DNA of 64,000 nucleotides, from the NCBI GenBank assembly GCA_018394315.1, contig CP074575.1, positions 1,768,615-1,832,614 of the forward strand, written 5' to 3'. The stretch is from Mycoplasmatota bacterium (GTDB taxonomy: Bacteria; Bacillota_I; Bacilli_A; MAG-NZ). The position numbers were made by a program, and so were the translations under genes. Position 1 is the first letter of the stretch. Every line of letters begins with the position of its first letter. Under the pieces are notes generated by a model. The model did not search any database. It worked only from the letters and a program-made list of their open reading frames with translations, and was not told the origin of the DNA. Positions 29,851-51,588 of the stretch are shown piece after piece.

Positions 29851-29989
29851 AAAGAAAGTTTTTTAAGCTTTCTTTTATATAATAATTTTAATATATTGTT
29901 TATTATATGTCCCTTGACTTGGGCCAGCAAAACCCATTTGTTGCTGAGCCATAGAAACCAATCTATCAGTACTAACACAAGAAGCCAAC
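29851..29989 (-). repeat. sspA 3'-end/terminator copy E (most degenerate) with 50-bp att-like site 29940-29989
   Basis: Aligns to 51304-51436. Confidence 0.9.
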
Positions 29990-29991
29990 TA

Positions 29992-30510
29992 TTATTGCTT
30001 TAAAATTACTTCCTCTTGTATAAAATTTTCTTTTTCTTCATAACTATTTATTTCGATAACTTTCCCCTTAAATGAGGATAATACTTCATTTATCCTTGGA
30101 TAGTTATTCTTTTCAAAATCTCTAACAAATTGAGAAAATTCTTCATTCACTATTCCTCCATCGAATCCAGATGCTATATCAGAACATTTTTTATACTTGC
30201 TTGATTCTTGTCTTTTGTAAATATTATCTAAACAAATTTCACCAGGAATTTTCATGAAGATTATTGTATCCGCATACTCGCTTCTGAACTGTAATGTTGC
30301 ATTATAATTTCCATCAATGATCCATTTATTGTTTGATAGAGCAAAATCGGTAATAATTGATTTCAATTCTTCTTTTGATATTGTATGATTATTATTAATG
30401 TGAAACACCCTGTCTAAATGTAAAATGGGATACTTCAACACTAAACCTAATTGTTTAGCAAAAGTACTTTTACCAGCTCCTGGGCTTCCAATTATTAAAA
30501 TTTTATTCAT
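29992..30510 (-). CDS. Topology-modulation protein FlaR / adenylate-kinase-like P-loop protein
   Basis: KILIIGSPGAGKST, LHLD, WIIDGNY; RBS supports ATG 30510. Confidence 0.85.
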   Translation of the reverse strand: MNKILIIGSPGAGKSTFAKQLGLVLKYPILHLDRVFHINNNHTISKEELKSIITDFALSNNKWIIDGNYNATLQFRSEYADTIIFMKIPGEICLDNIYKRQESSKYKKCSDIASGFDGGIVNEEFSQFVRDFEKNNYPRINEVLSSFKGKVIEINSYEEKENFIQEEVILKQ

Positions 30511-30548
30511 GGATATCACCTCATATAAAGAATACCATAATATCATTT

Positions 30549-30655
30549 TCTAAAATAAGAAAGTTTTAGAAAACTTTCTTCTATATAATATTTATTTTTA
30601 TATTAATTTATTATATATCCCTTGACTTGGGGCAGCAGAACCCATTTGTTGCTGA
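30549..30655 (-). repeat. sspA 3'-end/terminator copy D (truncated before the att centre)
   Basis: Aligns to ~51304-51418. Confidence 0.9.
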
Positions 30656-30682
30656 TAGAATGACTACGCCAGAATGTCAGTT

Positions 30683-30761
30683 ATCCATTTGTAATAGTTA
30701 GAAAAAAGACAAGATTTCAGTAAAATCAAGTCTCTTTATCTAGTCCCTAACTTACAGCTTA
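30683..30761 (-). repeat. Repeat R4 (terminator-like), also at ~44596-44674 and ~47408-47452
   Basis: Shared GACAAGATTTC...GTCT.TTT.TCTAGTC; TAACTTACAGCTTA shared with the 44.6-kb copy. Confidence 0.8.
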
Positions 30762-30852
30762 GATGGAAATCCTACCTAGAAATACAGTTAGTTCTATACT
30801 TTCATACTGCGAGTATCATTAAAAGGTATGTAATTTCATTTTAGGTCAACAC

Positions 30853-31821
30853 TTATAATCGTATTACGACATTCCCAACTTTATGTCCTTTATCTACATA
30901 AGTGTGGGCTTCTTTAAATTGATCAAAGTCAAAAGTTTTATCGATTATTGATTTTAATTGATTCAATTTAATCTGCTCGTTAAAGAAAAGAAAATCCTTC
31001 TTCTTCTCCGGGCCTTTCCTTAGTCCTGTAGCCGCAAACGTCGCTTTTTTTCCTTTAACAATAGACGTCATCATAGCTGAAAACATTACCGATAGATTCG
31101 GTACTGTTGTCATATAAATCCCATTAGATGTAAGCGCCATTTTGCATTTTTTAAAGCTGCTTTTACCTACCGCATCAAATATAACATCATATTTGGATAC
31201 TGCCTTAGTAAAATCATCTTTGGTATAGTCAACAACTTCATCCGCACCAAGTTCCTTCACCATCTGTACATTTTTACCACTACATACCGCAGTCACTTTT
31301 GCCCCGTAGTTTTTAGACAGTTGAATGGCATAAGTACCTATAGCCCCTGACGCACCATTAATTAATATATGTTGTCCTGCTTGAAGCTTTGCAACATCTC
31401 TTAGAAATGGCAACGCTGTAATTGCACCATCGCCAATACCTGCAGCTTCATCAAAACTTAGTTGCTCCGGTTTTCTTACAATAGGACTCTCACTGCTCAG
31501 ACATATATATTCTGCATGAGCCCCTGATTTTGGTGCACTAGTCCCATATACTTCATCTCCAACAGCAAATTCTGTGACACCCTCGCCTATAGCATCTATA
31601 ACTCCTGCAATACTATCTCCTGGGATATCTCTTGGTCTTAATAATCCAGCAAATAACCTTGTAATAGCAGGTTCTGCTCTTCTCACTGCACAGTCTGTTG
31701 GGGTTACAGTTGTTGCTTTTATTCTAATTCTATATTCGCCTTCTTTGGGCTCTGGGGTTGTTTCATTCACAACCTTAATAACATCTGGTGATCCATATTT
31801 TGTGTATCTTATCGCTTTCAT
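30853..31821 (-). CDS. NAD(P)-dependent MDR-family oxidoreductase (quinone-reductase/ADH-like)
   Basis: YGSPDV, INGASGAIGT, YDVIFDAVG, GHKVGNVVI. Confidence 0.9.
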   Translation of the reverse strand: MKAIRYTKYGSPDVIKVVNETTPEPKEGEYRIRIKATTVTPTDCAVRRAEPAITRLFAGLLRPRDIPGDSIAGVIDAIGEGVTEFAVGDEVYGTSAPKSGAHAEYICLSSESPIVRKPEQLSFDEAAGIGDGAITALPFLRDVAKLQAGQHILINGASGAIGTYAIQLSKNYGAKVTAVCSGKNVQMVKELGADEVVDYTKDDFTKAVSKYDVIFDAVGKSSFKKCKMALTSNGIYMTTVPNLSVMFSAMMTSIVKGKKATFAATGLRKGPEKKKDFLFFNEQIKLNQLKSIIDKTFDFDQFKEAHTYVDKGHKVGNVVIRL

Positions 31822-31860
31822 TTGCTTCTCTCCTTTTCTTTATTAACATAAAAAACTTCT

Positions 31861-31953
31861 TCAATTGACACACCAAGGAGCTAGTTGATCTTTCTTTTCT
31901 TCTTGATCAAACTTACTTGCCATATTGTTCCAAAACTTCTCTGATTGATTCAT
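31861..31953 (-). pseudogene. 30-codon N-terminal remnant resembling a class I SAM methyltransferase
   Basis: MNQSEKFWNNMASKFD with AGGAG RBS, then truncation. Confidence 0.45.
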
Positions 31954-31978
31954 TTCACTTTCTCCTGACTGTGATTTA

Positions 31979-32680
31979 TTAAAGTTTAGCAATACCGCAT
32001 TTATATCCAGAATATATCACTGATGTATTGAATCCTTTTACAATCAGCCATATCGCCAAAATCATTTCTAGTAAGGCCATTGGCAGACTTAAAACAATGT
32101 AGATTGGTGTTATGATGTCGATGAATTGGAACATTACTAATAAGCTTGCTAACATGGTCAATACTGTACCTATTAAACCCCAACCTGATAACCACCTAGG
32201 AACTAGTTTTGTTTTGTAGAAAATGTAATAAAGCATTAGCCCTCCTAAACTATGAACTAGTATCATTGCCACATGGTTCACTAAATCACGTCCTGCTCGA
32301 AGTAATACACCTAAAGTGTGAAAATAGGATGAATCAGGTGCTCCAGCTTTGATAAACTCCTGACTTAATATCAGTAGTAATAGTATGGCAATCACTCCAA
32401 TTATATTGAACACGCCAGCAATAAACCTAAAACCAATGAATCCAATTGCTAGACCTTCGTTAAATTTTCTTAAGATAGGATACATCAAAAAAGCAAAGCC
32501 AACATATGCTACGGCCATAATAAACTGAAAAATTGATGCAATTATTACTTGGTTAGCATTTGCAGAAGCTTTGAACAAATAATCTGATGCATCGATTGCT
32601 GGAGCAATGCTTAGTATCCCAGCAATGGTACCAATTATAAATAATAATCCAGCAATTATTGTAGTTTTTCTTAAACTCAT
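31979..32680 (-). CDS. DUF4386 family membrane protein
   Basis: AGLLFIIGTIAGILS, KTKLVPRWLSGWGLIG, EMILAIWLIVKGF. Confidence 0.85.
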   Translation of the reverse strand: MSLRKTTIIAGLLFIIGTIAGILSIAPAIDASDYLFKASANANQVIIASIFQFIMAVAYVGFAFLMYPILRKFNEGLAIGFIGFRFIAGVFNIIGVIAILLLLILSQEFIKAGAPDSSYFHTLGVLLRAGRDLVNHVAMILVHSLGGLMLYYIFYKTKLVPRWLSGWGLIGTVLTMLASLLVMFQFIDIITPIYIVLSLPMALLEMILAIWLIVKGFNTSVIYSGYKCGIAKL

Positions 32681-33376
32681 AATTTCACTCTTTCCCTTCT
32701 ATCTATATGCAGTTACTCAACTGCATAATCATTTCACTACAGCTAAAATCATAATCGCTATTTAAACTTTAAAATTAAATCTTTCATTTTCTCCCTCCAA
32801 TTAATTCTATAAGCTCATTATATGAACTAATTATTAAACAACAACTACTAAATTATTAAGAATTTATTAAGTTTCATTTTTTTGAATTTTGATTAATATG
32901 ATGAATTGCCAAACATATCAAGAATTCACAAGAATAAAAAGATTACTTTTTTATTGTAAAGCTTACTTAATTATAGTTATACTCTCCCTTCATTTGATAT
33001 CATAATATTACATGTAAGGTCTTAATTAATACTAAATTAAATCTTAAAAAAGTCTTAATTTTATTCTTGCATTTTATACCCAATACCCCAAACAGTCTGT
33101 ATGTATTTATCTAACGGCCGAAATTTACCTTTAGAACGATTATTACTAATGTGAACATTAATTGTGTTATCATCACAAATAAACTCTTGCTTCCAAATGC
33201 TTTCAAAGAGATTATTTTACGTATCCGTTCTCCAAAGGAGTAAGATCCGAAAAAAAGGTGTATGAGCGTTACTAAATAATAAAAAAATCTTTCTTTAATT
33301 AGATAGATTTTCAATTTATAAATATTAATATTTTTCGCACAGAACATAGTGATTGTACTATAGCGTCTATTTTCAA

Positions 33377-33404
33377 TGGTGGAGCTGGGGGGAGCCGAAC
33401 TCCC
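33377..33404 (-). repeat. tmRNA/tRNA-Ala-like 3'-end fragment (att-like, R2)
   Basis: GGGAGTTCGGCTCCCCCCAGCTCCACCA; no 5' half upstream. Confidence 0.75.
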
Positions 33405-33597: not shown

Positions 33598-34329
33598 CTA
33601 GACAGGTAACATAGAAATCAAGATTGCCCCCAAAATCAAGCTCGCAAAGTTCGCAACTATCGCGAAAGAAAATGCTCTTCGCTTACTATGCTCACGAAGA
33701 AGTATTGTGAATCCTAACACTTCAACAAGGAACACAAGAAGTTCGCCAGCAATTAGATTAAACAATAAATAACTCGGAATAATCGGAGAACCATTTATCA
33801 ACCAAATGTTTAACCATAATTGAGTAATTAAATTAATAATTAAAAATGTAACCCAGCTCTTTCTTGATTTATAGAGAAATACCACCAAAATAAATCCTTC
33901 TAACAACAAAGTAAGTATTAATCTTATACCTACTAAGATAGTTGTTCTTAGTGGATATTCTCCAGGAACTAATCTCTCATTATCTACATCCAGGGTGAAA
34001 ACATTTGTATATTTTTCAAGATTATCAGTATTAATTTCGAAAGTCTTTGCCCTCGTAGTCACTACTATCTTGTACTGTGAGATAGAATTTAAGGATACAG
34101 AATAAAATATATAATAGTCTTCCCAAGCTACTTCTTTATGTCTACCAGTTTCGAAGAAATCATCAGAAAAGATGGCTACCTCCATATCTTTGGGTGGATT
34201 GGTTACCAAAATAACTATAGAAGGAGGTTGTGCGGAATTAGCACTAACACTTCTTGGAAAAGCAAAGAGTAACAACACTAATATCATTAAACCAAATATT
34301 ATTTTAACACTATATCTATTTAGAGTCAC
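33598..34329 (-). CDS. Conserved hypothetical membrane protein with signal peptide
   Basis: ANSAQPPS..., four C-terminal TM helices (INLITQ, ANFASL). Confidence 0.7.
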   Translation of the reverse strand: MTLNRYSVKIIFGLMILVLLLFAFPRSVSANSAQPPSIVILVTNPPKDMEVAIFSDDFFETGRHKEVAWEDYYIFYSVSLNSISQYKIVVTTRAKTFEINTDNLEKYTNVFTLDVDNERLVPGEYPLRTTILVGIRLILTLLLEGFILVVFLYKSRKSWVTFLIINLITQLWLNIWLINGSPIIPSYLLFNLIAGELLVFLVEVLGFTILLREHSKRRAFSFAIVANFASLILGAILISMLPV

Positions 34330-34434
34330 TTTGAAATCACCGTCCTTTAAATTTCTTTTTTCATGATTTTACAACACAAAGACTTTTTAGTCCTTTAATC
34401 TTGCTTGTGAGACATTTATCAATTTGAATCTAAA

Positions 34435-34899
34435 CTATTTTATAATCAGCGGTACTTCAATATCCATAATTAATCTATTAGAATCACTCTCAAAAAAATC
34501 AGCAGTTATGAGTAGAATCACTTCTTTTTTCTTATTCCATTCAAACCACTCAAGTGGGAGCTCATAAAAATTGATGTCGTCTTCATTAGTTCTAAGTACT
34601 GTTGAGTTCATCAATAAATCAGGAATCATAAAAGGCTTCACAACCCCATCCTCTATAACATGCAAATATATGTAATCTTTCGAATGTTTTACTTTTTCTT
34701 CTTTTTTTGAACCAGAGTACTTTAGAGAAGTTGAGAGAACTAGATTATCGTCTTCGTTCAAAACATTATCATTCAGATTAATACTAAATGTAAAATCACC
34801 ATTAGTGATTACCTGGTTGAGAGAATTGTTTTTTTCTATACAACCTAGTAGACTAACCATAATAAGTAGTAGCGATAAAATATAAATAATTAGTCTCAT
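34435..34899 (-). CDS. Hypothetical lipoprotein
   Basis: LLGC lipobox. Confidence 0.7.
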   Translation of the reverse strand: MRLIIYILSLLLIMVSLLGCIEKNNSLNQVITNGDFTFSINLNDNVLNEDDNLVLSTSLKYSGSKKEEKVKHSKDYIYLHVIEDGVVKPFMIPDLLMNSTVLRTNEDDINFYELPLEWFEWNKKKEVILLITADFFESDSNRLIMDIEVPLIIK

Positions 34900-35328: not shown

Positions 35329-35359
35329 TGGTGGAGCTGGGGGGGAGTCGAACTCCCTC
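35329..35359 (-). repeat. tmRNA/tRNA-Ala-like 3'-end fragment (R2); a weaker T-arm fragment lies at 35275-35296
   Basis: GAGGGAGTTCGACTCCCCCCCAGCTCCACCA. Confidence 0.75.
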
Positions 35360-35470: not shown

Positions 35471-35626
35471 TCTAAAGAAAGAAAGTTTTTTAAAACTTTC
35501 TTCTATATAATATTTAGTTTTATTTTAATTTATTATTTTTTATATGTCCTTTGACTTGGGGCAGCAGAACCCATTTGTTGCTGAGCCATAGAAACCAATC
35601 TATCTGTAGCTCCATAAAAAGCCAAC
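35471..35626 (-). repeat. sspA 3'-end/terminator copy C with 50-bp att-like site 35577-35626
   Basis: Near-identical to 51304-51436. Confidence 0.95.
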
Positions 35627-35848
35627 TTCATACTTCCAATAATTGGTTTAATTCTATTCTAACACAAAGCTATAAGCTATACAAAATTATTAGTGTGCAC
35701 AAAAAGGTATACCAAGCATCTTGTTAATTCCTAAAAGAAAAACCTCTTTTATAATTTTCTACAAATAAGGGGTTAATCTTATTAATTATTAATACTCAGT
35801 ATCTAAAATTCTAAACTGTAGCATGATTTTAGGTCACTATACTATATT

Positions 35849-36171: not shown

Positions 36172-36585
36172 TTAATCTAACAATTCTACATCATAGCCTA
36201 TGATTTCAAGTAATTCTATTAATTCTTCTATTTCTTTATTGGTTTCATTTATTTTCAACGTTTGATTAGTTATATTAAACTCCAAATCTGATATACCTTC
36301 ACCTAAAAAGAAACTTCTTATTTCACTTTCAATATCTTCTTCAATTGGATTTAATATCTTCAATACTATTTGAGTATCCTTTGTTTTATAAGTTTTATCA
36401 ATTAAATATCCTGCTTTTTCTATTGCTTTATAAGCGTCTCTCACGCTAAGATCTCCTTCTTCAATCATGACAATATCATTAAGCATGTCAAATTTCACTA
36501 TTGAAAAGCCTGCAGAAATCAGCTCTGATTCGATCTTTAATCTACAATGCCCACATGCCATATTGACAACTTTTATTTCCTTCAT
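36172..36585 (-). CDS. Heavy-metal-associated (HMA) domain protein
   Basis: MACGHC motif; a second, Cys-less HMA-like domain follows. Confidence 0.8.
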   Translation of the reverse strand: MKEIKVVNMACGHCRLKIESELISAGFSIVKFDMLNDIVMIEEGDLSVRDAYKAIEKAGYLIDKTYKTKDTQIVLKILNPIEEDIESEIRSFFLGEGISDLEFNITNQTLKINETNKEIEELIELLEIIGYDVELLD

Positions 36586-36586
36586 T

Positions 36587-37138
36587 TTATCTCAACTCCA
36601 TTGTAGTAAGACAAGTTAGATCACCATCAAACGTAGAAATAGTTGAAGTACTGCTAAGCCCATTATAATTTACAGTAATAGTACCTTCTATTTCTCTAGG
36701 TAACCAAAGTTCAAAGAACCCATTTCTCAAACTTGTAACTTCGTTATTAAATATTTCTTTACCATAGCTATCTTTTACAATAACCTCAAATCTTTTCTCA
36801 ACCAGTTCAGCTCTACATCCTGTAGCACTATGGATTAGTCAGGTATGAGTAGTGTTTTCATATGGAGCAACAGCTACATAAAACATTTCTTCAGGCATTT
36901 CGTACTTCAGCTCAACAGAACCTGATCGTATGACTAGTTTGTCATCATATACTGAAGCACCCACATCCTTTATTGAAGTAGACATTTCTCCCAATTTGTA
37001 AATAATCTCCTCTATTGAAAGTTCCTCAATTCCTAGATTTTCTTTTAATTTTAACTCATCCGAAATTCCAGATTTAGTACATCCAGTTAATATTAGTACC
37101 AACACAAATATTATTACCAACTTCTTCACTTTAATCAC
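36587..37138 (-). CDS. cueP: CueP-family copper-binding lipoprotein with in-frame TGA (36839-36841); candidate selenoprotein, 183 aa
   Basis: LTGC lipobox; APYENTTHT*LIHSATGCRAEL...NGFFELWLPR...TCLTTMEL; frame stays open for 83 codons after the TGA. Confidence 0.85.
36809..36829 (-). promoter_or_regulatory. Candidate bacterial SECIS hairpin
   Basis: AGUGCUACA-GGA-UGUAGAGCU, G-led apical loop 18 nt after the UGA. Confidence 0.6.
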
Positions 37139-37153
37139 TACTTCCTATAGATT

Positions 37154-37345
37154 TTACTTATTAAAATTACTATTACTTTTGGATTTTTTCGTACATTCGG
37201 TATGCTTGCACATATCACAATCAATCTCAATTTCTATACCATCAGGAGCAGGGGTATTGTTATTAAGTAAATAAGAACCAATATATATTGCTACCATACC
37301 TAAAACAAATAAAACGACAATAAGATTTTGAATCATTGTCTTCAC
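37154..37345 (-). CDS. Small membrane protein with a Cys-rich tail
   Basis: One TM helix then CDMCKHTEC; AAGGAG RBS. Confidence 0.65.
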   Translation of the reverse strand: MKTMIQNLIVVLFVLGMVAIYIGSYLLNNNTPAPDGIEIEIDCDMCKHTECTKKSKSNSNFNK

Positions 37346-37378
37346 TCCTTTCTACTTTTGTTTATATTCTATTATATA

Positions 37379-37398
37379 AATATGAACAGAATATGAAT
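37379..37398 (-). promoter_or_regulatory. Direct repeat ATTCATATT-N2-GTTCATATT, candidate OmpR-family regulator box
   Basis: 11-bp-phased repeat next to TATAAT; a degenerate copy at 38160-38179. Confidence 0.55.
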
Positions 37399-37459
37399 TA
37401 TTAGATTGATATATTCTTCATAAGAAAAGGAGTGTCTATACACCCCTAAAATATATATA

Positions 37460-38119
37460 CTAGAATCCTCTAGAAGATCTGTAACTAGTATTTCTTCTAT
37501 AATTATTATATGAACCATGGCAACTACCGTAGAATCTACTATTAGATCCGTATCCATTCATAAATCCACCCATGTAATCGCCATATCCGTAATAGTCTAG
37601 TCCTAATTCATTAGCTTTGTCTTCAACTAAAGAATCAATAGTTTCGCGAGCGTTAATTGTTTCTTCTTCACTCATACTCGCCCAGTCATATGAGAACATC
37701 AAGTTGTGCATATAATACATTAACTCTGTCTGTTCATCTGAAGCGTAACCATACATCATTCCTGGTCGAAAACCAGCCCCAAAATCAGGTAAGTCTAATC
37801 CAAGTTCGATTGCTTTTTGATCTAAGAGTTGATTCATTTGAGATTGTGCTTCCCTGATTTCTTCAGCAGTCATTGCCGAGAAGTCATAAGCCTCAATTAA
37901 TTCAATCTGATAGTCCATGAATTGTTTCATTTCTTCATCAATAAATAATCTGTTCATACCTCCATGCATACCAAACCCACCATATTCTTGTGTTTCTTCA
38001 AATCCTAATTTTTGAGTCGCCATATGATAATAATCTTTTACTTGATTTTGTACACCATCATATGTTGCTGCAAATCCTCCAGTTAATAATGAAATAGATA
38101 ATAATAAACCTTTCATCAT
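37460..38119 (-). CDS. Secreted Met/Gly/Tyr-rich protein with two internal repeats
   Basis: Signal-like N-terminus; YDFSAMTAEE...KAIELGLD and YDWASMSEEE...KANELGLD. Confidence 0.7.
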   Translation of the reverse strand: MMKGLLLSISLLTGGFAATYDGVQNQVKDYYHMATQKLGFEETQEYGGFGMHGGMNRLFIDEEMKQFMDYQIELIEAYDFSAMTAEEIREAQSQMNQLLDQKAIELGLDLPDFGAGFRPGMMYGYASDEQTELMYYMHNLMFSYDWASMSEEETINARETIDSLVEDKANELGLDYYGYGDYMGGFMNGYGSNSRFYGSCHGSYNNYRRNTSYRSSRGF

Positions 38120-38361
38120 ATTCCTCCTTTCTTATTTTACTATTATATTATAGATAATAAATGTATAGTAAATATGAATTTCAATTTCCAATACGATTTA
38201 GAGAACCATCATAGAGCAAGCTCTAAATTACAAAAACCCCGTTCTTTATAGAATCGAACAAGGGTCTTAATTTATTTCTCAAGAAGTTTTCATAAACTGT
38301 TTTACAGTTTAGTAATTATTTTAGTTTTATTATTTCCTAACACTTGAATTACTAAATTTAT

Positions 38362-38748
38362 CTAATTGTTAACAATCTCCTCAATTTTCTCTTTACAACA
38401 TCCAAATTCAGAAACTCCGCAGTACTCTTCAATTTCTGAAACTGTAGTAGCTCCTTTTGAAATTGATTCTTCAATTTTAGCTTTACTAATGTTGTGACAA
38501 CAACATATGATTTCCTCAACTTCATTTTGACTAACAGTAAATCCTGCATCTTTTATAGTTTTTAAAATTATTTCCTCATTCTGACCGTTGAGTTCTACAT
38601 CAACAATTTTATCCTCTAAAGATATTTTATAACTTTCTATCCCTAAATCAATTAGCGCTTTTTCAATCTTTTCAGAACATGTTATACAGTTCATATCTTC
38701 TACTTTTACTTTCATTTTTGTATACTCCTTCTTATTGTAATTACTCAT
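38362..38748 (-). CDS. CopZ-like HMA domain fused to a BFD-like [2Fe-2S] domain
   Basis: MNCITC then ICCCHNIS...GATTVSEI..YCG...GCC. Confidence 0.75.
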   Translation of the reverse strand: MSNYNKKEYTKMKVKVEDMNCITCSEKIEKALIDLGIESYKISLEDKIVDVELNGQNEEIILKTIKDAGFTVSQNEVEEIICCCHNISKAKIEESISKGATTVSEIEEYCGVSEFGCCKEKIEEIVNN

Positions 38749-38755
38749 GTTACTT

Positions 38756-41645: not shown

Positions 41646-41646
41646 A

Positions 41647-41808
41647 TTATTCACTTTGTACTTGTCTTATGTGTTTATAATCATCTATTGATATTTCATC
41701 TCTAGCAAGTCTTTCATTTAATATTTCAGAAGCACTTTTCAAAGATGGTTTATCTTTATAACCCGTATAAACAAATACTAACAAAATCAAGAACAGAATA
41801 ATCCTCAT
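41647..41808 (-). CDS. Small TM+SHOCT protein, 53 aa (absent from the ORF track)
   Basis: MRIILFLILLVFVY...SASEILNERLARDEISIDDY. Confidence 0.75.
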   Translation of the reverse strand: MRIILFLILLVFVYTGYKDKPSLKSASEILNERLARDEISIDDYKHIRQVQSE

Positions 41809-41810
41809 TT

Positions 41811-42152
41811 CTATCTTCCCCTTTCAATCTCAGATTTAATTCTATTATATTCTTCTATCGTAATATCTCCATTTGCTAGTCTATTGTCTAAGATTTTTTG
41901 AGCACTAACGTCTTTCTTTTCCACTTGGAAAATTAATCTGTAGATAAATGCTACTACAAAATAGATAATTACCCAACAAACTACTATCCAAATCATCCCA
42001 AATGGCCAATAACTACCACCATAATGTCCCATCATGTGGCCACCATAATAGTAATCACCTCTTAATACATTATTTGATTGATAATTGAGAAACCAAATAC
42101 CACCAAGTATCAACACTAATATAACTATAGTAAATATAACTATTTTTTTCAT
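41811..42152 (-). CDS. SHOCT-domain membrane protein with a His/Met-rich loop
   Basis: GGHMMGHYGG; AQKILDNRLANGDITIEEY. Confidence 0.8.
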   Translation of the reverse strand: MKKIVIFTIVILVLILGGIWFLNYQSNNVLRGDYYYGGHMMGHYGGSYWPFGMIWIVVCWVIIYFVVAFIYRLIFQVEKKDVSAQKILDNRLANGDITIEEYNRIKSEIERGR

Positions 42153-42199
42153 CTTATCTCCTCCTACATTAATCTTATAAAATAACTATGAATAGATTA

Positions 42200-43465
42200 T
42201 TATTTAAACTCATTAAGGAATATTTTGAATTCTGTTCCAACTCCCTCTTTACTTAATACTTCAAGCTTTCCCCCTAAATCCAGTACAAGCAAGTTGACAA
42301 TATAAAGACCTAATCCAGATCCTTTTTTATGTAAATCAGTAGCACTTTCAACTCTATAATCCTTTTTAAATATATTTTTTAAGTGTTTATCTTGAATACC
42401 AATGCCTTTATCCTTTACAGAGAATATAATCATTTCACTCCTCTTGAGTGAGACCTCAACATAACTACTGGTTTTAGAATAGTAATAGCTATTTGATAGT
42501 AAATTGTAGATGATTCTAGAAACAGATTCCCTTTCACCTGTTATCATAATCCCTTCTTCTACATCTACCGATAAGTTGATATCTTTTGTATCAAAAACGT
42601 TTAGAAATCGCTCACAATGCTCTACTATCATTTCTGATAAATTAATTTCCTCCAAGATATACTCACTCTCGCAACTATTGACTGACTCAATTAGATTATT
42701 TAGTGTTGCAACTTCCTCTTTTAGTATTGTTAGAACGTCACCATTAATTTTAAGTCTATTAGATTCAACTCCTTCTAAATAACTCAATAATATTGTTAAG
42801 GGCGTCTTCATATCGTGTGTGATTGTTTGAAGCTCTTTTGTTCTAGATATCTTTAGTTTCGCATAATCATTGGTTATCCTATCAACTTCATTGTAAATTT
42901 CATGGAAATCTTGAAAATGAAATTCCTTATCTATAGTATCACTTTTGTTTATTTTCAATTTAAGTTTACTCATATCTTTCAAAACCTTATTAACCCTGAT
43001 CGAGATGTAATTATAATAGAAAATAAGACTTGCTATATAAACTACCAAGATAAAAAGATTAGTTACTAATAAAAATGTATTATTTAATAACGTATTTACC
43101 GAATAGGTACTGTCAATCAATACCTTACCCACTATTTCATCCTCTATATTTAGTGTGTATGATTTATAGTTACTTCCTATCAATTCAGTTTCATATAATA
43201 AGGAATCATTATAGAAGTACTTGATTGATGTGTTGTGAATATGTGAGTAGTGCTCGATGTATTCATTAACAGAATCTTTTCCATTATCTCTTATCATATG
43301 TTCCACTACCGAAGCAAAAGCTATTTCCTTTTGTACAGTTGAATGGTTTTCATAGTTGTTATTAAACAAAAATATTCCTATATTCATAATAAAGAAAATC
43401 AATGTAAACATTATACTTAGTTTTAGTACAAAATCTCTCTTGAAAAATCTTTTAAAGTCATTCAT
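42200..43465 (-). CDS. Sensor histidine kinase
   Basis: THDMKTPL, NLLSNS, DKGIGI, GSGLGL. Confidence 0.93.
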   Translation of the reverse strand: MNDFKRFFKRDFVLKLSIMFTLIFFIMNIGIFLFNNNYENHSTVQKEIAFASVVEHMIRDNGKDSVNEYIEHYSHIHNTSIKYFYNDSLLYETELIGSNYKSYTLNIEDEIVGKVLIDSTYSVNTLLNNTFLLVTNLFILVVYIASLIFYYNYISIRVNKVLKDMSKLKLKINKSDTIDKEFHFQDFHEIYNEVDRITNDYAKLKISRTKELQTITHDMKTPLTILLSYLEGVESNRLKINGDVLTILKEEVATLNNLIESVNSCESEYILEEINLSEMIVEHCERFLNVFDTKDINLSVDVEEGIMITGERESVSRIIYNLLSNSYYYSKTSSYVEVSLKRSEMIIFSVKDKGIGIQDKHLKNIFKKDYRVESATDLHKKGSGLGLYIVNLLVLDLGGKLEVLSKEGVGTEFKIFLNEFK

Positions 43466-44156
43466 CTAAATTACCTATAAACTTATATCCTAAACCATAG
43501 ATAGTCTTGATGAAAGAAGGATTCTTAATATCATCCTTTATTTTCTTTCTTATATTTTTAATATAGACATCAATAACTCTATCAAAGACATCTGAACCAT
43601 TGCCAAAACAATATTCCAACAATTGATCTCGAGTGAATATTTGAAAAGGATTTGAAGCTAGGTGTAATAGCACTCTATATTCATTACTCGTAAGTTCCAT
43701 ATCAGTATCACCTACTTTTATTATGTTGTTTTTAAGTGAAATTAATAATTTACCTCTGTTAAATGAAAGTATGTTTTTAACATTTTTGTTTCTCTTCTTA
43801 AGGAAATTTTTAATTTTTAGAAGTAGCTCATCACAGGAGAATGGCTTTACTATATAGTCATCTGCACCGATCTTCAATCCATATAATTTATCATCTATAT
43901 TAGTTTTAGCCGTTAATATAATAATATGGACATCTGAATTAACTCTTATCCTTTTAATCATTTCTTCACCTGATAATCCAGGAAGCATTAAATCAGATAT
44001 TACAATATCAATATCATAATTATTGAAAATTTCTAACCCTTCTTCCGCGCTAAGTGCTGAATAAACACTGTATCCTTCCTGCCCACAGTAAAGTGATATT
44101 AGGTTGTTGATTTTTTGGTTATCTTCGACTATCAAAATATTATTCAAATTTAACAC
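43458..44156 (-). CDS. OmpR-family response regulator
   Basis: IVED, DLMLPG, GADDYIVKPF, winged-helix IKTIYGLGY. Confidence 0.95.
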   Translation of the reverse strand: MLNLNNILIVEDNQKINNLISLYCGQEGYSVYSALSAEEGLEIFNNYDIDIVISDLMLPGLSGEEMIKRIRVNSDVHIIILTAKTNIDDKLYGLKIGADDYIVKPFSCDELLLKIKNFLKKRNKNVKNILSFNRGKLLISLKNNIIKVGDTDMELTSNEYRVLLHLASNPFQIFTRDQLLEYCFGNGSDVFDRVIDVYIKNIRKKIKDDIKNPSFIKTIYGLGYKFIGNLDE

Positions 44157-44336
44157 CTCTACTTATAATTAATATAACCACTAATTATATGGGAAATGTG
44201 TTGTTTGAATATTATATAAAAAAAATACTGAGTATCAGTAGTTAATGTTTGTTATTTCCTATATATAATAACTCAAACGTATAGTCAAAATTTATGTGAG
44301 TTGAAGTGGTTTCTTAATATTGGAGTGGATTTTGAT

Positions 44337-44492
44337 TCTAAAGAAAGAAAGTTTTTTAAAACTTTCTTCTATATAATATTTAGTTTTATTTTAATTTATT
44401 ATTTTTTATATATCCCTTGACTTGGGGCAGCAGAACCCATTTGTTGCTGAGCCATAGAAACCAATCTATCTGTAGCTTCATAAACCACCAAC
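44337..44492 (-). repeat. sspA 3'-end/terminator copy B with 50-bp att-like site 44443-44492
   Basis: Near-identical to 51304-51436. Confidence 0.95.
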
Positions 44493-44682
44493 TTTTGACA
44501 ACTTATTACAAAGATTTACATGTACTGATTCAAAGTCCTCTTTTACTAGCTATTACCGAAAAATCAGATAGAATGTCCACTTCAAGATGTTAATTAATCC
44601 TTTGTAATTATTAGATAAAAGGACAAGATTTCAACAAACCTAGTCTTTTTATCTAGTCCTTAACTTACAGCTTAAATAATAA

Positions 44683-47037
44683 CTAATCATTTCTTATTTC
44701 TAAGTTTGGATGGTAATAGGAAATATTATAGTTAGCTATTCCATTTCCTCTATTAATCTTAAAAAATTCTAATATATAATCCTTGTCCTTATCATCATAC
44801 GAGTGTTCTTGTGTTTTATTTGTAATAAACTGACCCGTTCCACCCAACTCATAATATATGTCAATTATATTGAACCACTTCTCAGGCATATCACGTCCAA
44901 TTAAGCCTATTAATAAATCTCTTTCTTCTTCTGTGAACGTGTCATACCCCCAAAGAGGATCATTAGTGTCTAGCATTCCAAGATGGAATAATTTAGGTAA
45001 ATCACCATATGTTTTACTATCAAATTCAGAACCAAATAAGTATTCATGATTAGCTATTCCTACAGGATAAATCAGTTCAGACCCTTGATAATTATCACTT
45101 GGTAAAATTGGATGATGAATTCCTCCAACATAAACAGCTTTGAATTCTTCCGGATAAATTGATGATAATCTATTTGCAAATGCTCCTCCTGTTGAAAATC
45201 CACCAATAAATACTTTCTCCTCAAGGTCAAATCCAGCTTCACTTAGTCTTTCCTTCGCATCATCTAGTATATTCATCATCTGGACCTCATAGTTTTTGAG
45301 TAACTCAAGGTCTTCTCGAGTATATATAGAACCCTTACTAATTTCCATATTTTCAAATTCATCTTCCAAGTACATAGTAGTACTATCTAAGTCTTGTGGC
45401 TTTATAACTTCAGTTACTTCACTTGTGATGTTTCTAACATCAGGTCGTGGAGTTATTGGCATTACTCTTGGGACATGAAGTTCATCAGAAACATAATACA
45501 TTACTCTCCAATTTTCATGTAGCGACTCATAAGCCTCAATAATAGTTTCTATGAAATTGTCATTAGACTTAGGGTTATTAGTTTCAAATATTAGATATGA
45601 TAAGTCATTACTATTTATTAATTGATTATTGGATGTTGGTAGTTGTATAAAATATGGATAATTAAAACCTTTATCTGGATTAGCAGGTATAAATACAATT
45701 TTACCATAATCCGTATTTTTGAAACTTGTTCCAAGTTCTATAATCTCCCTCATTTCTCTCTCTTGCCATGAAAGAATCTCTGAAATATCAGCTATCCCTG
45801 ATATTTCAGATGTAAATAAATCATCTGGTAATACTTCAAACATCTTGATTAAGTTTGACTCACTACTAGCGTTAAGTATAATAATATGCTTTCCATCATA
45901 ATTTCTTGACAAGTATTGATTTTCTTCAAGTCTTGAAGCTTCTGGAATCAATTCTTTTATATACAATGGGAAATCTTGATTCGGAATATTTAAAACAATT
46001 ATTTGACTGGCGTAGTCTATTTCATTTTGAGTCACATTCTGATTTGATTGTTTACTACAATTATCAAATTGATAAAAATCTATCATTCTATTTACAGATT
46101 CTCTTTGTCCAATAATCAAATTATCCTTTAAATCATCTTCATTATAGAATTCCATTTCGGGATCAGATGGAGGAGTAATAATTTCATGTACGTCTTTCAC
46201 AATTTCAATACGTGACAATTTATTATTTGGAGGTGCAATAACACCTTCTTTGTCAGTATATATTGTATATACGTCAACATTCATCGGGTTAATTGGACTA
46301 AATACATTAGTTTCCCTAAATAAATTATCTATATATGCCCTATAATCAGATTCACCAGTATTAACATATAATACTAACTGTTCTCCATCTACTATTAAGT
46401 TGTATCCATTTTTCAATTCAAAAAAAACTGGAATTCTCCTCTCAAGAAGAATATACCAATCCCACCATGCTGGATTACTAAAATGATAATTCCCGTCTAA
46501 CAAAATTGAGTGAACTTGATCTCCTCTTTCTATTTCTTCATTTTCAACAAACTCTCGAACATTCTTCATACTTGCCAACCAGTATGGTAAGTCTATCCCT
46601 AGCGTATGATGTACGTGCCTTTGTAAGTAATTTAGTGCATCTTCATCTCCGGCAACGAAAAAATTATCATCGACGAAATATTCGTCTACAATTATTTTTA
46701 ATTCTTCATAAGATATTTGGTAACCTTCTTTTAAAGAATTAATGACATCAGTGAGTTGAATTACTTCCTCTTTTTTTTCTGTTGAGACATCAGAATCATC
46801 TTCTCGAGTGTTGCCCTCTGTATCAATTACATCGACAATCTCACTTGGAACATTATCTCCAGTTCCATCATCTGTTGTAATTTTTTCAGTAGTCTCACCA
46901 GAATCACTTTCTGCTAAAGTTTCTTCTTGTTCAATAATTCCCGCTACCTCACCAATTCCAGCAGTGTTATCTGTACATCCAATCAACATAAAAACTATTA
47001 AGAGTATCATTACTTTTTTCCACATAAGTACCTCCAT
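44683..47037 (-). CDS. Large acidic lipoprotein with a C-terminal alpha/beta-hydrolase-like domain
   Basis: LIGC lipobox, acidic linker, GGFSTGG nucleophile elbow, candidate Asp (DTND) and His (QEHSY). Confidence 0.65.
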   Translation of the reverse strand: MEVLMWKKVMILLIVFMLIGCTDNTAGIGEVAGIIEQEETLAESDSGETTEKITTDDGTGDNVPSEIVDVIDTEGNTREDDSDVSTEKKEEVIQLTDVINSLKEGYQISYEELKIIVDEYFVDDNFFVAGDEDALNYLQRHVHHTLGIDLPYWLASMKNVREFVENEEIERGDQVHSILLDGNYHFSNPAWWDWYILLERRIPVFFELKNGYNLIVDGEQLVLYVNTGESDYRAYIDNLFRETNVFSPINPMNVDVYTIYTDKEGVIAPPNNKLSRIEIVKDVHEIITPPSDPEMEFYNEDDLKDNLIIGQRESVNRMIDFYQFDNCSKQSNQNVTQNEIDYASQIIVLNIPNQDFPLYIKELIPEASRLEENQYLSRNYDGKHIIILNASSESNLIKMFEVLPDDLFTSEISGIADISEILSWQEREMREIIELGTSFKNTDYGKIVFIPANPDKGFNYPYFIQLPTSNNQLINSNDLSYLIFETNNPKSNDNFIETIIEAYESLHENWRVMYYVSDELHVPRVMPITPRPDVRNITSEVTEVIKPQDLDSTTMYLEDEFENMEISKGSIYTREDLELLKNYEVQMMNILDDAKERLSEAGFDLEEKVFIGGFSTGGAFANRLSSIYPEEFKAVYVGGIHHPILPSDNYQGSELIYPVGIANHEYLFGSEFDSKTYGDLPKLFHLGMLDTNDPLWGYDTFTEEERDLLIGLIGRDMPEKWFNIIDIYYELGGTGQFITNKTQEHSYDDKDKDYILEFFKINRGNGIANYNISYYHPNLEIRND

Positions 47038-47158: not shown

Positions 47159-47236
47159 GGAGAGACTAAAGGGAATCGAACCCTCGTAAGTCAAACATAC
47201 ACTTATTTCAATATGTATTTTTTCAAAGATCGATCG
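47159..47236 (-). repeat. tRNA-like T-arm fragment plus flank (R2), homologous to 51124-51203
   Basis: CGAGGGTTCGATTCCCTTTAGTCTCTCC; flank aligns with the 51.1-kb copy. Confidence 0.7.
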
Positions 47237-47454
47237 TATTCTATTTGATGAATGATGAGTTTATTATATCTGTAAATGATTAACCTCATCAATTCATCTA
47301 CTTCTATTATAAGATTTATACGGAATGATTCGTTCTGTTCAAAAAAATAATTTAATTTTTTGATTTACCATAGAAATAATTATAGATATAATATCTGCTT
47401 ATAACAAAAAAAAGACAAGATTTCTTTAAAATCATGTCTTTTTCTAGTCATTAA

Positions 47455-47780: not shown

Positions 47781-48617
47781 TTACCCATTACCTGATCCGG
47801 AGATTGGATCTGGGAAGTACATTCCTTCAAAATTAAAAAGTCCATTTTCAATAGCATATGTTAACGTCATTATTTCATCATTGACCAAAAAAACATAATC
47901 AGAAAATGATCCACCTACAATAGTGTGATTATCAATGGATTCTTCGTAATCAGAATCATAACTATGATTAGTATTGTAATATAATGGCATTTTGCGATAC
48001 ATTCCAAGATAAACGCTATTCTTGCCTAGATAATCAATGATGATATCTGGAACAAAGTCCTTTTCATTTATCAGTACTGCTTTAGCCGAAGTCTTTCCAG
48101 GAAAAGATTCCAACATAACATCATAAGTTATTTCAACTAGGTTTCCAACCTCAAACTCATCTGAAACTCCTTTGCAAAACTTTGGTTTTTTTTCAATATT
48201 TACAATAGTCATACCCTCATCAAGAGTATTAACCCAAATACTTTCTTCTTTTACTTTGACAATGGGTCCCAACACATTGTAATTAACTTCATAAATTGCT
48301 GGATAGTTTGCCTTTACAGCAGTGGCATTCCATGGATAACTAGATTTATCAAGATCCTTAATTTCAAATTCTAGATGATGTCGCCACAGTTCAACCTCAG
48401 GAAAATTGTCTGGAAGTTCAGTTTCATAATTAATCTCAACCCACACATAACCATAGTTAGATAACCTATCTGGTATCAATAATTTATTATCCTTTTGATC
48501 TCTTGGCCTTCCTGCAACCATGTTATCAAATAATGGATTATTATCAACCGGAGAACAATTATTGTCTTTACAACCTACTAAATTTAGTAATAAAATCAGG
48601 AATATGATTTTTCTCAT
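47781..48617 (-). CDS. Lipoprotein with a DUF3221/YobA-like domain
   Basis: LVGC lipobox; VGNLVEITYDVMLESFPGK. Confidence 0.65.
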   Translation of the reverse strand: MRKIIFLILLLNLVGCKDNNCSPVDNNPLFDNMVAGRPRDQKDNKLLIPDRLSNYGYVWVEINYETELPDNFPEVELWRHHLEFEIKDLDKSSYPWNATAVKANYPAIYEVNYNVLGPIVKVKEESIWVNTLDEGMTIVNIEKKPKFCKGVSDEFEVGNLVEITYDVMLESFPGKTSAKAVLINEKDFVPDIIIDYLGKNSVYLGMYRKMPLYYNTNHSYDSDYEESIDNHTIVGGSFSDYVFLVNDEIMTLTYAIENGLFNFEGMYFPDPISGSGNG

Positions 48618-48922: not shown

Positions 48923-49867
48923 TTAACTAATATGATTGCTTTCTAAATATGATTTTAGCCATGAACTCATTTTCCTTGCGATATTCATGGGTTCTCCAGT
49001 CACTCCACCGTTATGTATCGCTACAATCCTATTTTGTGAATCATAAACAGGTGAACCGCTTTGACCAGATGTAGCATCAACTTTATACTCAATAGTATAT
49101 AGATTGAGATCATAAACTGGTCCATCAGCGGTCCACATTGTCTTTGACGTTGCATCTGGAGTTGTGTTAGGATAGCCAGTTAAGTTAATGTTTTGTGCAA
49201 TTAATACATTATCATGTAAATCAAATATTTTTACTCCGCTGTCCACGTTAGAAGAAAGAGTGATTACTCCCCAATCATGATTAGTTGAACCGCTACTCTC
49301 CCACTGAGATGCAACTGAAATTGTTGCTGCATACTCCGTACTAAAATGATTAGTATTTTCGTCTACTCCCGGAGACACAGTAACCGCATAAGCCCATCCT
49401 AAGTTATCTTTATGATCATACAGACAATGTCCAGCAGTTAGTACACTGTTTGCATCTATCATTGCACCTGTACAATAGCCGTTATATATATCATTATTCA
49501 CATCCTTGTAGTACATTTTCAGGTGTACTATTCCTGAATACGGATCGGCAGTTGTGTCAGTAACCCTAACTCGATCGTCATCTGATGGTGTTGGTAAGAT
49601 ACTTTTAATATCGTTATCAAGACCTAAATGTGCTTCAGCATAAGTCGGATAATCACCTAGCACTCTATCACCTACAGTTAACTGTCCTGTTTCGCTATCA
49701 TATACAACTTTCTCTAAATCAATACTGATTTCTTCTATCTCTTCCTTATATTTTCCATTCTTAGCAAGTACGTCTTGTCCGGAAATAGTGAATAAACATA
49801 AAAACAAACACATCATAATTACTTTTTTCATCCCAAATCTCACTTTCTTTTTTTTTGTGAATTCCAT
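48923..49867 (-). CDS. Secreted trypsin-like serine protease (V8/Mpr glutamyl-endopeptidase type); likely start ATG 49831
   Basis: CTG, LTAGHC, DWGVI, GQSGSPV catalytic triad motifs. Confidence 0.88.
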   Translation of the reverse strand: MEFTKKKKVRFGMKKVIMMCLFLCLFTISGQDVLAKNGKYKEEIEEISIDLEKVVYDSETGQLTVGDRVLGDYPTYAEAHLGLDNDIKSILPTPSDDDRVRVTDTTADPYSGIVHLKMYYKDVNNDIYNGYCTGAMIDANSVLTAGHCLYDHKDNLGWAYAVTVSPGVDENTNHFSTEYAATISVASQWESSGSTNHDWGVITLSSNVDSGVKIFDLHDNVLIAQNINLTGYPNTTPDATSKTMWTADGPVYDLNLYTIEYKVDATSGQSGSPVYDSQNRIVAIHNGGVTGEPMNIARKMSSWLKSYLESNHIS

Positions 49868-50087
49868 AGTTTAATGTCTTAAATATTGTATCCTCTTAAA
49901 TACTCCTTTCTAATACTAATATGAAATAGTGTTTGTACTATTGATGTGCGAAAAAAATGTAATAGTCCCTACTATCAAATATTAATTTCATCGTTATAAT
50001 CAACACTTAAGAACTCAAAAACAAATATATTTGAATTCACAATTAAATTATACACTGACTATTATAGAATTCAAAATTTTTTTGTAG

Positions 50088-50152
50088 TCTAGCAACATTG
50101 TTCAAAAAACACTGCTTTAAGGGGGGTAATTTAGGGTGTTGATGCAAGATTT
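50088..50152. repeat. Repeat R3, second copy
   Basis: Aligns with 35186-35250. Confidence 0.8.
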
Positions 50153-50627
50153 CATATAAAAGTTAAAAAAAGAAATGATATAAGAAATAATATTGACAGC
50201 AAATATCTCCAAAAAGGGTATCAATGATTAAGTGGATTTAATATCTTTTTTTATGAATGGAGAAAGTTCAACTTATTCCATATCAAGGAGAAATTATACT
50301 CAATCAGTTGACTATAATTCTTAAATTAGCAATTGCCCTTGCTAACTTAATCTATATAAGTAACAATAATTGAATCTACATAAACTCGTCTATCTCATAC
50401 AATAGCTTGTTTAGACGTGAGTCACTAAAGTATGTATACTTACAAAAGTGTCAATTAACTGTTTGTGAGGAGACACACACTTACTACTACAAGCAGCTAA
50501 ACCATACCATTGGTTTTTAAAATCAGCAGGCATTATCAATACATCTCAAGTAAGTGATCGAATGGTGGAATTATATGTACTCATATTAACTCTCACCAAT
50601 TTATCTACTTCCATTATATCACTTACT

Positions 50628-50825
50628 CTAAAATCTTATATGGACCACTCTTTTAAATTGATTTGACCTCCTCAATACAATAGATAACTCTTCAGCTAGG
50701 TTTTCTGATTCAATAAGTGATGCTTTATTACTTATGCTCCAAAGTTCCAAATTGTCTTCATAAATGCAGATTCCATGTATGCGGTCATCTTTATCCACAA
50801 TGCTTATTAGATTCATATTAATCAC
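50628..50825 (-). pseudogene. Short ORF with RBS, probably the 5' remnant of a decayed gene
   Basis: AAGGAG RBS; downstream 50200-50620 is stop-ridden; family not recognised. Confidence 0.35.
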
Positions 50826-51123
50826 TCCTTATGAAAAGGATAGTGAATCTTTTACTACAAATCAATATAATATAATTGAATAATTAATTATTTTCTATTA
50901 CACTCTATAAATTTCTTTTAGTACAAACAGTATAGCAAAGATGGATGTCCAATCGTTCTTCCAGTGTTTACTCAATACATATTCAAGTCATCTATGTACA
51001 AAATTAAAATCATTATTCAGTCATAGAAATCCATTCACAGAGGACTAAGTATCGACAATAATCAGATACTGACTATGTAAATAAAAAAGATTAGATGTAA
51101 TCATCCAATCTCATGAGTCTCAA

Positions 51124-51203
51124 TGGGGTGACTGAAGGAATCGAACCCTCATACGTTAAACTTATACTTACTTCAATATATAATCTTTCAAAAAATAAAT
51201 CGC
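51124..51203 (-). repeat. tRNA(His-like) 3'-end fragment plus flank (R2)
   Basis: GAGGGTTCGATTCCTTCAGTCACCCCA; no 5' half. Confidence 0.7.
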
Positions 51204-51312
51204 TAAAAAACAGTATTGACTAAACTTATATAAAAAGTTCATTTCGATTAACGTACAGTATAATTTTCATAGTTCCTAAGCACCAGAATTAAAATGATTA
51301 TACTCTAAAAGA

Positions 51313-51336
51313 AAGAAAGTTTTTTAAAACTTTCTT
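51313..51336 (-). terminator. Intrinsic terminator of sspA
   Basis: AAGAAAGTTTT/AAAACTTTCTT stem followed by TCTTTT. Confidence 0.7.
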
Positions 51337-51366
51337 CTATATAATATTTAGTTTTATTTTAATTTA

Positions 51367-51588
51367 TTATTTTTTATATGTCCCTTGACTTGGGGCAGCA
51401 GAACCCATTTGTTGTTGAGCCATTGAAACCAATCTACGAGTTATTTCTCCACCAACTGACCCGTTTTGTCTAGCCGTACTGTCAGGTCCTAATGTTACAC
51501 CAAGTTCACTGGCAATCTCGTATTTCATTTGATCGATTGCAGCCTGTGCTCCTGGAACTACTAATTTATTATAAGAGTTTTGAGCCAT
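51367..51588 (-). CDS. sspA: Alpha/beta-type small acid-soluble spore protein
   Basis: [25 protein letters not shown]...[15 protein letters not shown]; downstream of thiI as in Bacillus; GGAGGTG RBS. Confidence 0.95.

Follow-up and report, generated by a model that had tools for sequence, protein, structure and literature searches.

A probable gene-restoring attachment site in the spore gene sspA of a Mycoplasmatota bacterium, with recombinase-less cargo modules stacked behind it

Results

The window analyzed here is a stretch of 64,000 nucleotides from a Mycoplasmatota bacterium (GCA_018394315.1, contig CP074575.1, positions 1,768,615 to 1,832,614 of the forward strand), and its subject is the spore gene sspA together with the tract of cargo modules that follows it. 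The genome that holds the window, designated G000, is closed, measures 2.17 Mb at 31% G+C and encodes Spo0A. We compared it with a relative in a second genus (G004) and with the further relatives G002, G001 and G005. A forespore gene with a very active promoter, sspA is the sole gene in G000 from the family of small, acid-soluble proteins of spores (SASP) (Pfam PF00269). It is uninterrupted, reading through as an open reading frame (ORF) of 73 amino acids (aa), and is followed by a 3′ untranslated region (UTR) and a terminator-like hairpin (Table 1). The tRNA and Rfam scans, in which no attC model was run, gave no match in the window, and a promoter scan was at chance level (42 versus 38.5).

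The last 22 codons of sspA, with the UTR and terminator, recur as four further direct copies, all on the minus strand like the gene itself, as an earlier note on this DNA had described from the letters alone. The copies are 85 to 98% identical to the intact locus and score 220, 220, 141 and 139 bits, compared with 37.4 for the best of 50 shuffles. An 11-bp core within the repeat occurs five times in the 2.17-Mb genome, every time in this tract. Because the scores lie far above those of the shuffles and the core is confined to these five places, the repeat is neither a chance match nor a dispersed element; in the whole-genome search all five cores and the three arms described below fell within the tract, with none of the scatter of repetitive extragenic palindromes or miniature inverted-repeat transposable elements. 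Measured from core to core, the repeats are spaced at 6968, 8866, 4929 and 708 bp and thus delimit four modules, as had been proposed. The hairpin folds at all five places (z −1.5 to −3.5), and the match to the intact locus continues for about 60 bp beyond the terminator of copy 2. Two 58-aa antisense ORFs over the copies were dismissed as chance.

The nearer copies are better kept, but the decay with distance from the gene that the earlier note reported runs in two steps (98, 98, 87 and 85% identity) rather than as a smooth gradient; copy 4 is probably the oldest. The 110 bp upstream of copy 3 match the right end of module 1 at 79% identity, and copies 1 and 3 share both this upstream flank and a downstream change. 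CAA is replaced by CAG in four of four copies and TCA by TCT in the three that are long enough to reach that codon. Both differences common to the copies are synonymous, and every private one is non-synonymous or removes the stop. The two shared changes had been taken to indicate a functional replacement allele; they are no proof of it by themselves, since they could have arisen in the intact gene. An assembly artefact or neutral local duplication would agree with the array itself being seen in one genome, G000. We hold this to be very improbable, as the copies differ in their flanks and each bears changes of its own, no module is a duplicate of another, and an independent genome carries the same structure of arm plus fragment.

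That structure begins with a 26-bp arm, foreign to sspA, which precedes three of the four copies, copy 3 having lost it by deletion. In G004 the same arm is fused to an sspA end with UTR and terminator (C1:1553822-1553964). The fused stretch lies 760 kb away from the sspA gene of that genome, and its terminator region finds its best match in G004's own sspA (83%). Across the four arms, which come from two genera, 14 of the 26 junction-side columns are invariant, as against 2 of the next 60. Allowing up to two mismatches, the arm pattern occurs at just these four places in 401 genomes, a count in which only the lack of more hits is informative because the pattern was built from them; a phylum-wide pattern search matched 2 of 401 genomes, namely G000 and, by chance, a gene of G177 (G004 lay outside this sample). 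As a short, sharply bounded motif in four unrelated flanks, the arm would resemble a recombinase binding site. Its interpretation as the scar of a recombinase gene was rejected, there being no consistent reading frame and no likeness to the ends of the local recombinase genes.

At the junction, genes and arms of the two genera have TAGA alone in common. Right after the AGA, the G004 fragment is recoded in frame, keeping 12 of 14 residues, and its changes fall mainly at third codon positions (7/11, p 0.039; 9/13 with the two shared G000 changes, p 0.009), followed by the 11-bp core, which is identical in seven of seven sequences. Because the ends look translated until their displacement and decayed afterwards, the crossover would lie, from sequence comparison, at or near the AG of the Arg52 codon of sspA (51434-51435). 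Relative to its place in the gene, a GTWGG motif is displaced outward from this AG by 4 bp in all four arms; its W agrees with the host, the gene and arms of G000 having T and those of G004 having A.

The same tandem accretion could also be the work of a tyrosine integrase of the type associated with the tRNA arrays of G000, exchanging strands in the 11-bp core (codons for Gln-Gln-Met-Gly); all sequence upstream, TCT and CAG included, would then be an arm of about 46 bp. This would account simply for the presence of TCT and CAG in the copies yet not in the intact gene, and it agrees with the invariance of the core. G000 has 10 tyrosine-integrase matches, several of them beside tRNA or tmRNA arrays with arms of about 40-45 bp, and module 1 contains a 33-aa N-terminal tyrosine-integrase stub (36% identity to a G000 integrase; 12.3 bits versus a best of 8.1 in 20 shuffles). 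The stub, however, lies 0.6 kb behind a tRNA-His-type site and is convergent, like the integrases beside the tRNA arrays of G000, and is better assigned to a nested element. Such a crossover would leave unexplained why G004, upstream of the core, diverges in frame at third positions; the sspA arm is unlike the A+T-rich tRNA-type arms, and there is no clear dyad around the core. We consider a tyrosine integrase at sspA unlikely.

The sspA site is empty in relatives. In G002, trmH begins about 80 bp past sspA. A GTDB scan for sspA gave at least 119 loci; synteny and tyrosine integrases were examined at 80 loci (82 matches) and serine recombinases and displaced ends at 119 loci (123 matches), and the counts apply among the matches listed. 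trmH lies within 8.6 kb downstream in 27 of the 82 matches and within 1.1 kb in 19, and the order thiI-sspA-trmH is also present in Bacilli, Acholeplasmataceae or Mollicutes bacterium records. The empty order thus occurs in relatives at family level or wider, none of them a strain pair with G000, and the native downstream neighbor is trmH (~19740), not hydC as the earlier note had it. No tyrosine integrase stands beside sspA in the 82 matches, and neither serine recombinases nor displaced ends do in the 123 (72 with at least 5 kb downstream); one of the 119 loci has tandem whole sspA genes. No sspA match was obtained in G001, the single genome of the same genus, which is 55% complete. In G004, another block of 7.4 kb separates sspA from trmH and contains no displaced sspA copy; it starts with a tRNA-Sec/Trp-type anticodon fragment (L029:10516-10529), about 110 bp behind G004's own sspA terminator.

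As relatives have trmH close behind sspA, the 31.5 kb from 51300 to 19764 are extra in G000. The sspA repeats bound 21.5 kb of it; the further 10 kb, between copy 4 and trmH, are not syntenic with relatives and have no sspA repeat at their end. The hydrogenase operon in this part occurs elsewhere, with other neighbors, in G004 and G005. Two ISL3 copies of different subgroups, 84% alike, lie in the window (27663-29175 and 54294-55805), the first of which comes between the promoter region of the hydrogenase small-subunit gene and the gene's 5′ end.

Tyrosine integrases use an overlap of about 7 bp; an identity of 4 bp is too short for them and is typical of serine recombinases. Because gene and arms share only these 4 bp, and because of the half-site geometry and the shifted motif, we favor a large serine recombinase as the probable enzyme at sspA. 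Large serine integrases distinguish attP from attB by a spacing shift, usually of 5 bp and, for SPbeta, of 4 bp (PMC11722253), and the minimal SPbeta sites measure 52 and 44 bp (PMC5499854). The half-sites here, at 26 and 22 bp, are half the SPbeta minimal sites. The 16-bp SPbeta core matches at 11 of 16 positions at two junctions, a level reached by 104 of 127,968 window positions.

An intact recombinase is absent from the 34 ORFs covered by a Pfam scan, so the earlier statement that the tract has no recombinase gene holds for intact genes and is qualified by the tyrosine-integrase stub. Elsewhere in G000, at the end of the tmRNA array, lies the C-terminal, catalytic-less half of a CcrB-like serine recombinase (C1:1082948-1083703), 75% identical to an enzyme of G004, a genome with four serine recombinases. 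The arm and junction patterns had no match in metagenome contigs or viral contigs. A looser arm pattern matched seven viral loci, none with an sspA-like continuation or a nearby recombinase, and a native-codon pattern matched two metagenome loci, both ordinary sspA genes without a repeat; BLAST against phages and plasmids returned short chance matches (8 records, none with coverage above 21%) or nothing.

A piece of a different attachment system stands at the head of each of the three large modules, no more than about 160 bp from the terminator; it is of tRNA-His type in module 1 and related to tmRNA in modules 2 and 3 (Table 1). This would be in line with a route that needs no sspA-specific enzyme, in which one old fusion of arm and sspA was followed by circles, made by tRNA or tmRNA integrases, that entered through the homology of about 130 bp by RecA-dependent single crossover. 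The absence of a cognate enzyme from the data searched agrees with this, as does the 3′ part, which follows its host genome (98% identity in G000; in G004, 83% to the gene of that genome), and the features common to copies 1 and 3 look as if junctions travel as units. Conservation, however, ends sharply 26 bp from the junction in four flanks, which fits a protein-binding site better than passive inheritance. In module 4, moreover, no tRNA-type site was detected and a single ORF abuts the arm, and 130 bp is short for efficient homologous integration. Entry by homology is in our view quite unlikely.

The modules have a G+C content of 0.28-0.32, like the flanks, and composition is therefore uninformative. 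All 15 non-overlapping ORFs of at least 110 aa in the tract are on the minus strand, compared with 27 out of 36 in the rest of the window (p about 0.013). The co-orientation with sspA that had been pointed out is real, but it is weak evidence, because the strand bias elsewhere accounts for part of it. Cargo is listed in Table 1. Upstream of the 784-aa gene in module 1, pieces of its own 3′ end (47452-47551 and 47598-47658; 89-93%) are the remains of an earlier paralogous cassette. Blocks related to the copper block of module 2 are present in G001 and G005, with no sspA-site match in the flanks examined; within the block is a broken lgt gene (41224-41820), which we take to be prolipoprotein diacylglyceryl transferase-like. 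A 65-bp sequence (82%) is common to modules 1 and 3 only in the genome (35186-35250 and 50088-50152).

Table 1. Features of the sspA locus and the tract behind it (positions in the window)
Feature	Position	Strand	Remarks
Intact sspA, 73-aa alpha/beta-type SASP	51367..51588	-	PF00269
sspA 3′ UTR and terminator-like hairpin	51308..51366	-	hairpin 51315-51334; folding
Displaced sspA 3′ end and terminator, copy 1	44340-44468	-	98% identity, 129 bp
Displaced sspA 3′ end and terminator, copy 2	35474-35602	-	98% identity, 129 bp
Displaced sspA 3′ end, copy 3	30549-30655	-	87% identity, 107 bp; arm deleted
Displaced sspA 3′ end, copy 4	29851-29965	-	85% identity, 115 bp
26-bp element arm 1 (putative P half-site)	44468..44493	-	
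26-bp element arm 2	35602..35627	-	
26-bp element arm 3	29965..29990	-	
Module 1: tRNA-His-type site piece and upstream arm, nested	51116..51194	-	85% to sites in tRNA-His array C1:253-267 kb
Module 1: N-terminal tyrosine-integrase stub, 33 aa, pseudogene	50419..50517	+	modest signal
Module 1: trypsin-like serine protease	48923..49867	-	PF00089
Module 1: lipoprotein-like ORF	47781..48617	-	four paralogues (56-60% aa) in array behind tRNA-Arg
Module 1: second tRNA-His-type site, ~200-bp arm	47164..47360	-	85-87% to C1:253453-253649 and 266524-266719
Module 1: 784-aa lipoprotein-like ORF, no Pfam family	44683..47037	-	
Module 2: arm like DNA following tmRNA ends in G004, at module start	44233..44301	-	76-77% identity
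Module 2: copper-handling block	36172..44156	-	response regulator, kinase, SHOCT protein, lgt pseudogene, heavy-metal P-type ATPase, HMA proteins, CueP-like
Module 3: tmRNA 3′-end fragment, nested site 1	35330..35357	-	
Module 3: two ORFs without Pfam family, between two tmRNA fragments	33598..34899	-	
Module 3: tmRNA 3′-end fragment, nested site 2	33377..33404	-	
Module 3: response-regulator pseudogene, DUF4386 gene, zinc-binding dehydrogenase	30853..33250	-	
Module 4: one nucleotide-kinase-like (FlaR/topology-modulation-like) ORF	29992..30546	-	stop ends 1 bp before arm
Further 10 kb non-syntenic with relatives: hydrogenase operon, ISL3, GGDEF/HD-GYP gene	19764..29850	-	between copy 4 and trmH

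Behind tRNA-Ser, -His, -Gln, -Arg, -Trp and tmRNA, G000 carries rows of tRNA fragments; in four cases an intact integrase lies beside the RNA gene, and a tmRNA integrase is retained. Cargo of the sspA tract has twins in those arrays. The DUF4386 gene of module 3 is 98% identical to one at C1:1741 kb and 87% to one in G004, the regulator pseudogene of the same module has 95% DNA identity to C1:1436 kb, and the lipoprotein-like gene of module 1 has its four paralogues there. Because its large modules carry tRNA-His and tmRNA pieces together with cargo shared with other arrays, the sspA locus belongs to a genome-wide set of cassette arrays, of which it forms one anchor. The displaced sspA site of G004 likewise sits in a row of 10 tmRNA-type sites (1514-1576 kb), between two tRNA-Phe-type sites and near the 87% identical DUF4386 gene and a second whole sspA as cargo. 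This second gene (L033:5441-5674) stands right behind a tmRNA-type site, and its tail is without the 11-bp core.

The tRNA-Phe motif has 54 matches in G004, 9 in G000 and 0 to 2 in most others of 151 genomes. Most intervals of the G004 arrays (L031-L034, L039, L041, L193-L195) hold a single ORF, in many cases with a hairpin after it; a tyrosine integrase lies right behind tRNA-Phe, and the arrays look like an integron-like cassette system. In G000, 11 tRNA-Phe anticodon-arm fragments lie 0.4-1.5 kb apart with one or two ORFs between them (C1:576073-583883). This row is 110 kb away from the tRNA-Phe gene, and no integrase was found near it. Directly behind tRNA-Phe, small-ORF cassettes with tRNA-Phe 3′ halves between them also occur in G084 (L196, 7659-13400) and G135 (L197, 7275-11200), with 9 and 5 matches including the gene and no tyrosine-integrase match in 20 kb; they represent another family of the class.

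Behind tRNA-Arg in G000 (C1:1421011-1468735) are at least 10 T-loop-like sites with a conserved arm of 45 bp, the downstream half matching none of the genome's tRNAs. In G004, the last bases and terminator of tRNA-Leu(tag) occur nine times at C1:2017659-2092489, and inside this array are two CcrB-like serine recombinase elements with primase/polymerase-like genes, both followed by the same Asn/Gln-rich ORF of about 45 codons; there is also one 125-bp scar of a recombinase end. In the tRNA-Trp and tRNA-Sec of G000 the triplet 3′ of the anticodon is ACA, the usual one being AAA.

Discussion

Repeated site-specific integration at sspA probably produced the tract described here. The arm at three junctions and in a second genus, the empty site in relatives and the codon pattern of the G004 fragment support the earlier proposal that sspA is a recurrent, gene-restoring insertion site. 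The accompanying idea of a family of non-autonomous elements is inferred, as neither a cognate recombinase nor a strain-level empty allele nor an excised circle was found. The earlier note did not mention the nested tRNA-His and tmRNA sites or the cargo in common with other arrays. On balance, our reading is that sspA serves as a reused attachment site that is restored at each use by a serine-type recombinase, with recombinase-less cargo stacked behind it.

The attachment site in sspA would be centered on the AG of the Arg52 codon, and circular elements would carry a matching site composed of the 26-bp arm, the same AG and, as a replacement, the final 22 codons with UTR and terminator. The two sites would be joined by a site-specific recombinase, most likely of the large serine type. 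Each insertion would then rebuild sspA, which stays a target, and push the earlier 3′ end to the far side of the element, so that four rounds would yield four modules with the newest next to the gene. Either each module would later have lost its recombinase gene or that gene would have been provided in trans from the start, which would leave the array now frozen. Separately, tyrosine-integrase elements that ordinarily use tRNA-His and tmRNA may have added cargo at sites just behind the terminators, with cargo moving between arrays, and the terminator copies may insulate the modules from the sspA promoter.

Several observations weigh against this interpretation. Synonymous changes in the intact gene would yield the same pattern in G000, and a crossover further on, in the 11-bp core, would also account for the shared TCT and CAG. 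A plain identity scan scores shifts of +7 and −3 as high as +4, dyad symmetry about the center is not above that of other registers, and all right halves keep the gene spacing, with no outward-shifted half of the attP′ type. The likeness to SPbeta was spotted only in retrospect, and SASP codons constrain the gene side. G000 gave no Recombinase or Resolvase domain, the arms are unlike the ends of the serine recombinase genes of G004 and G000, and no cognate recombinase was found at any element end, in the tract or intact in G000. Three of the four arms come from one genome, and the attachment site is seen in two genomes only, with no strain-level empty allele; these two genomes and the missing enzyme limit the weight that the finding can bear.

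Integrative and conjugative elements (ICEs) and integrative and mobilizable elements are known to accrete in tandem with cis-mobilizable elements (CIMEs) at gene 3′ ends (PMC5704250). As in that accretion, the modules are separated by copies of the target end, most members lack integration and transfer genes, and the target is intact (PMC5704250). The sspA tract has direct 3′-end copies, no intact integrase or transfer genes (Pfam, 34 ORFs) and an empty site in relatives. It differs in its spore-protein target, the lack of an autonomous member, the serine-looking site, the duplicate of about 130 bp that includes a terminator, and the nested foreign sites (PMC5704250). The ssrA islands of Dehalococcoides, served by the serine integrase DsiB and related to the staphylococcal cassette chromosome (SCC)/CcrB system, are likewise tandem islands behind a single-copy gene; 15 are without an integration module, 16 keep it, and the repeat is 20 bp of tmRNA (PMC3146451). 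Here, in contrast, the target is protein coding, the replacement end is recoded, and no module keeps an enzyme (PMC3146451).

The sporulation-gene intervening elements (SPbeta in spsM, skin in sigK, gin in gerE, vfbin and vrin) share with the sspA modules a sporulation target, and the SPbeta att sites are similar in geometry and core to the sspA site (PMC4191935, PMC5499854, PMC5595907, PMC6957869). Those elements interrupt their gene, encode the recombinase and excise in the mother cell (PMC4191935, PMC5499854, PMC5595907, PMC6957869), and almost all of them are in mother-cell genes (PMC6957869). Because sspA is whole and its modules encode no recombinase (directionality factors were not searched for), the array is not of the skin/SPbeta/gin type. 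Streptococcal serine-integrase ICEs at rumA also exchange the 3′ part of a protein-coding gene, but their site lies inside the integrase gene and the C terminus of the target is altered (PMC4701971), whereas the sspA arm has no consistent frame and the end of the protein is kept. With their single ORFs between recombination sites, module 4 and the tRNA-Phe-type arrays of G000 and G004 resemble integrons. Unlike integrons, the sspA array has no integrase beside it, its sites are copies of a host gene end, and its modules reach 8.7 kb.

Stacking at gene ends is thus known, and sspA as a target appears to be new. In agreement with the earlier note, which knew of no such description, we found no paper naming sspA or a SASP gene as an integration target in the literature searchable as open text; subscription papers were not searchable, and the target annotations of PMC10083194 could still bear on the point. 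The "sspA" of PMC13245101 belongs to the SspABCD defence system and was set aside, and SASP is mentioned only as phage cargo in PMC8270828.

The simplest reading of the nested sites is that circles with several kinds of site enter at whichever anchor has its enzyme available. More tentatively, there may be a genome-wide exchange of cassettes among many anchors, in which modules with sites for unrelated recombinases (serine at sspA; tyrosine at tRNA-His, -Phe, -Trp, -Ser, -Arg and tmRNA) would hop between arrays, forming an integron-like reservoir without an integron integrase. In such an exchange, sspA would be the first forespore-gene anchor, with an SPbeta-like enzyme that restores its target. 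We raise this possibility because of the nested sites in the three large modules, the sspA site of G004 within a tRNA-Phe cassette in a tmRNA-type array, the near-identical cargo across arrays and the 54 tRNA-Phe-type sites of G004.

A forespore gene is not usable by interrupting elements without risk to the germ line; with a gene-restoring site in sspA, mobile DNA would have a second means of exploiting sporulation. The SASP motif at the site is widely conserved, and the cognate recombinase, if found, could serve as a neutral landing-pad tool for spore formers. The nested sites, for their part, provide a concrete route by which cargo such as copper resistance may move between hot spots of one genome.

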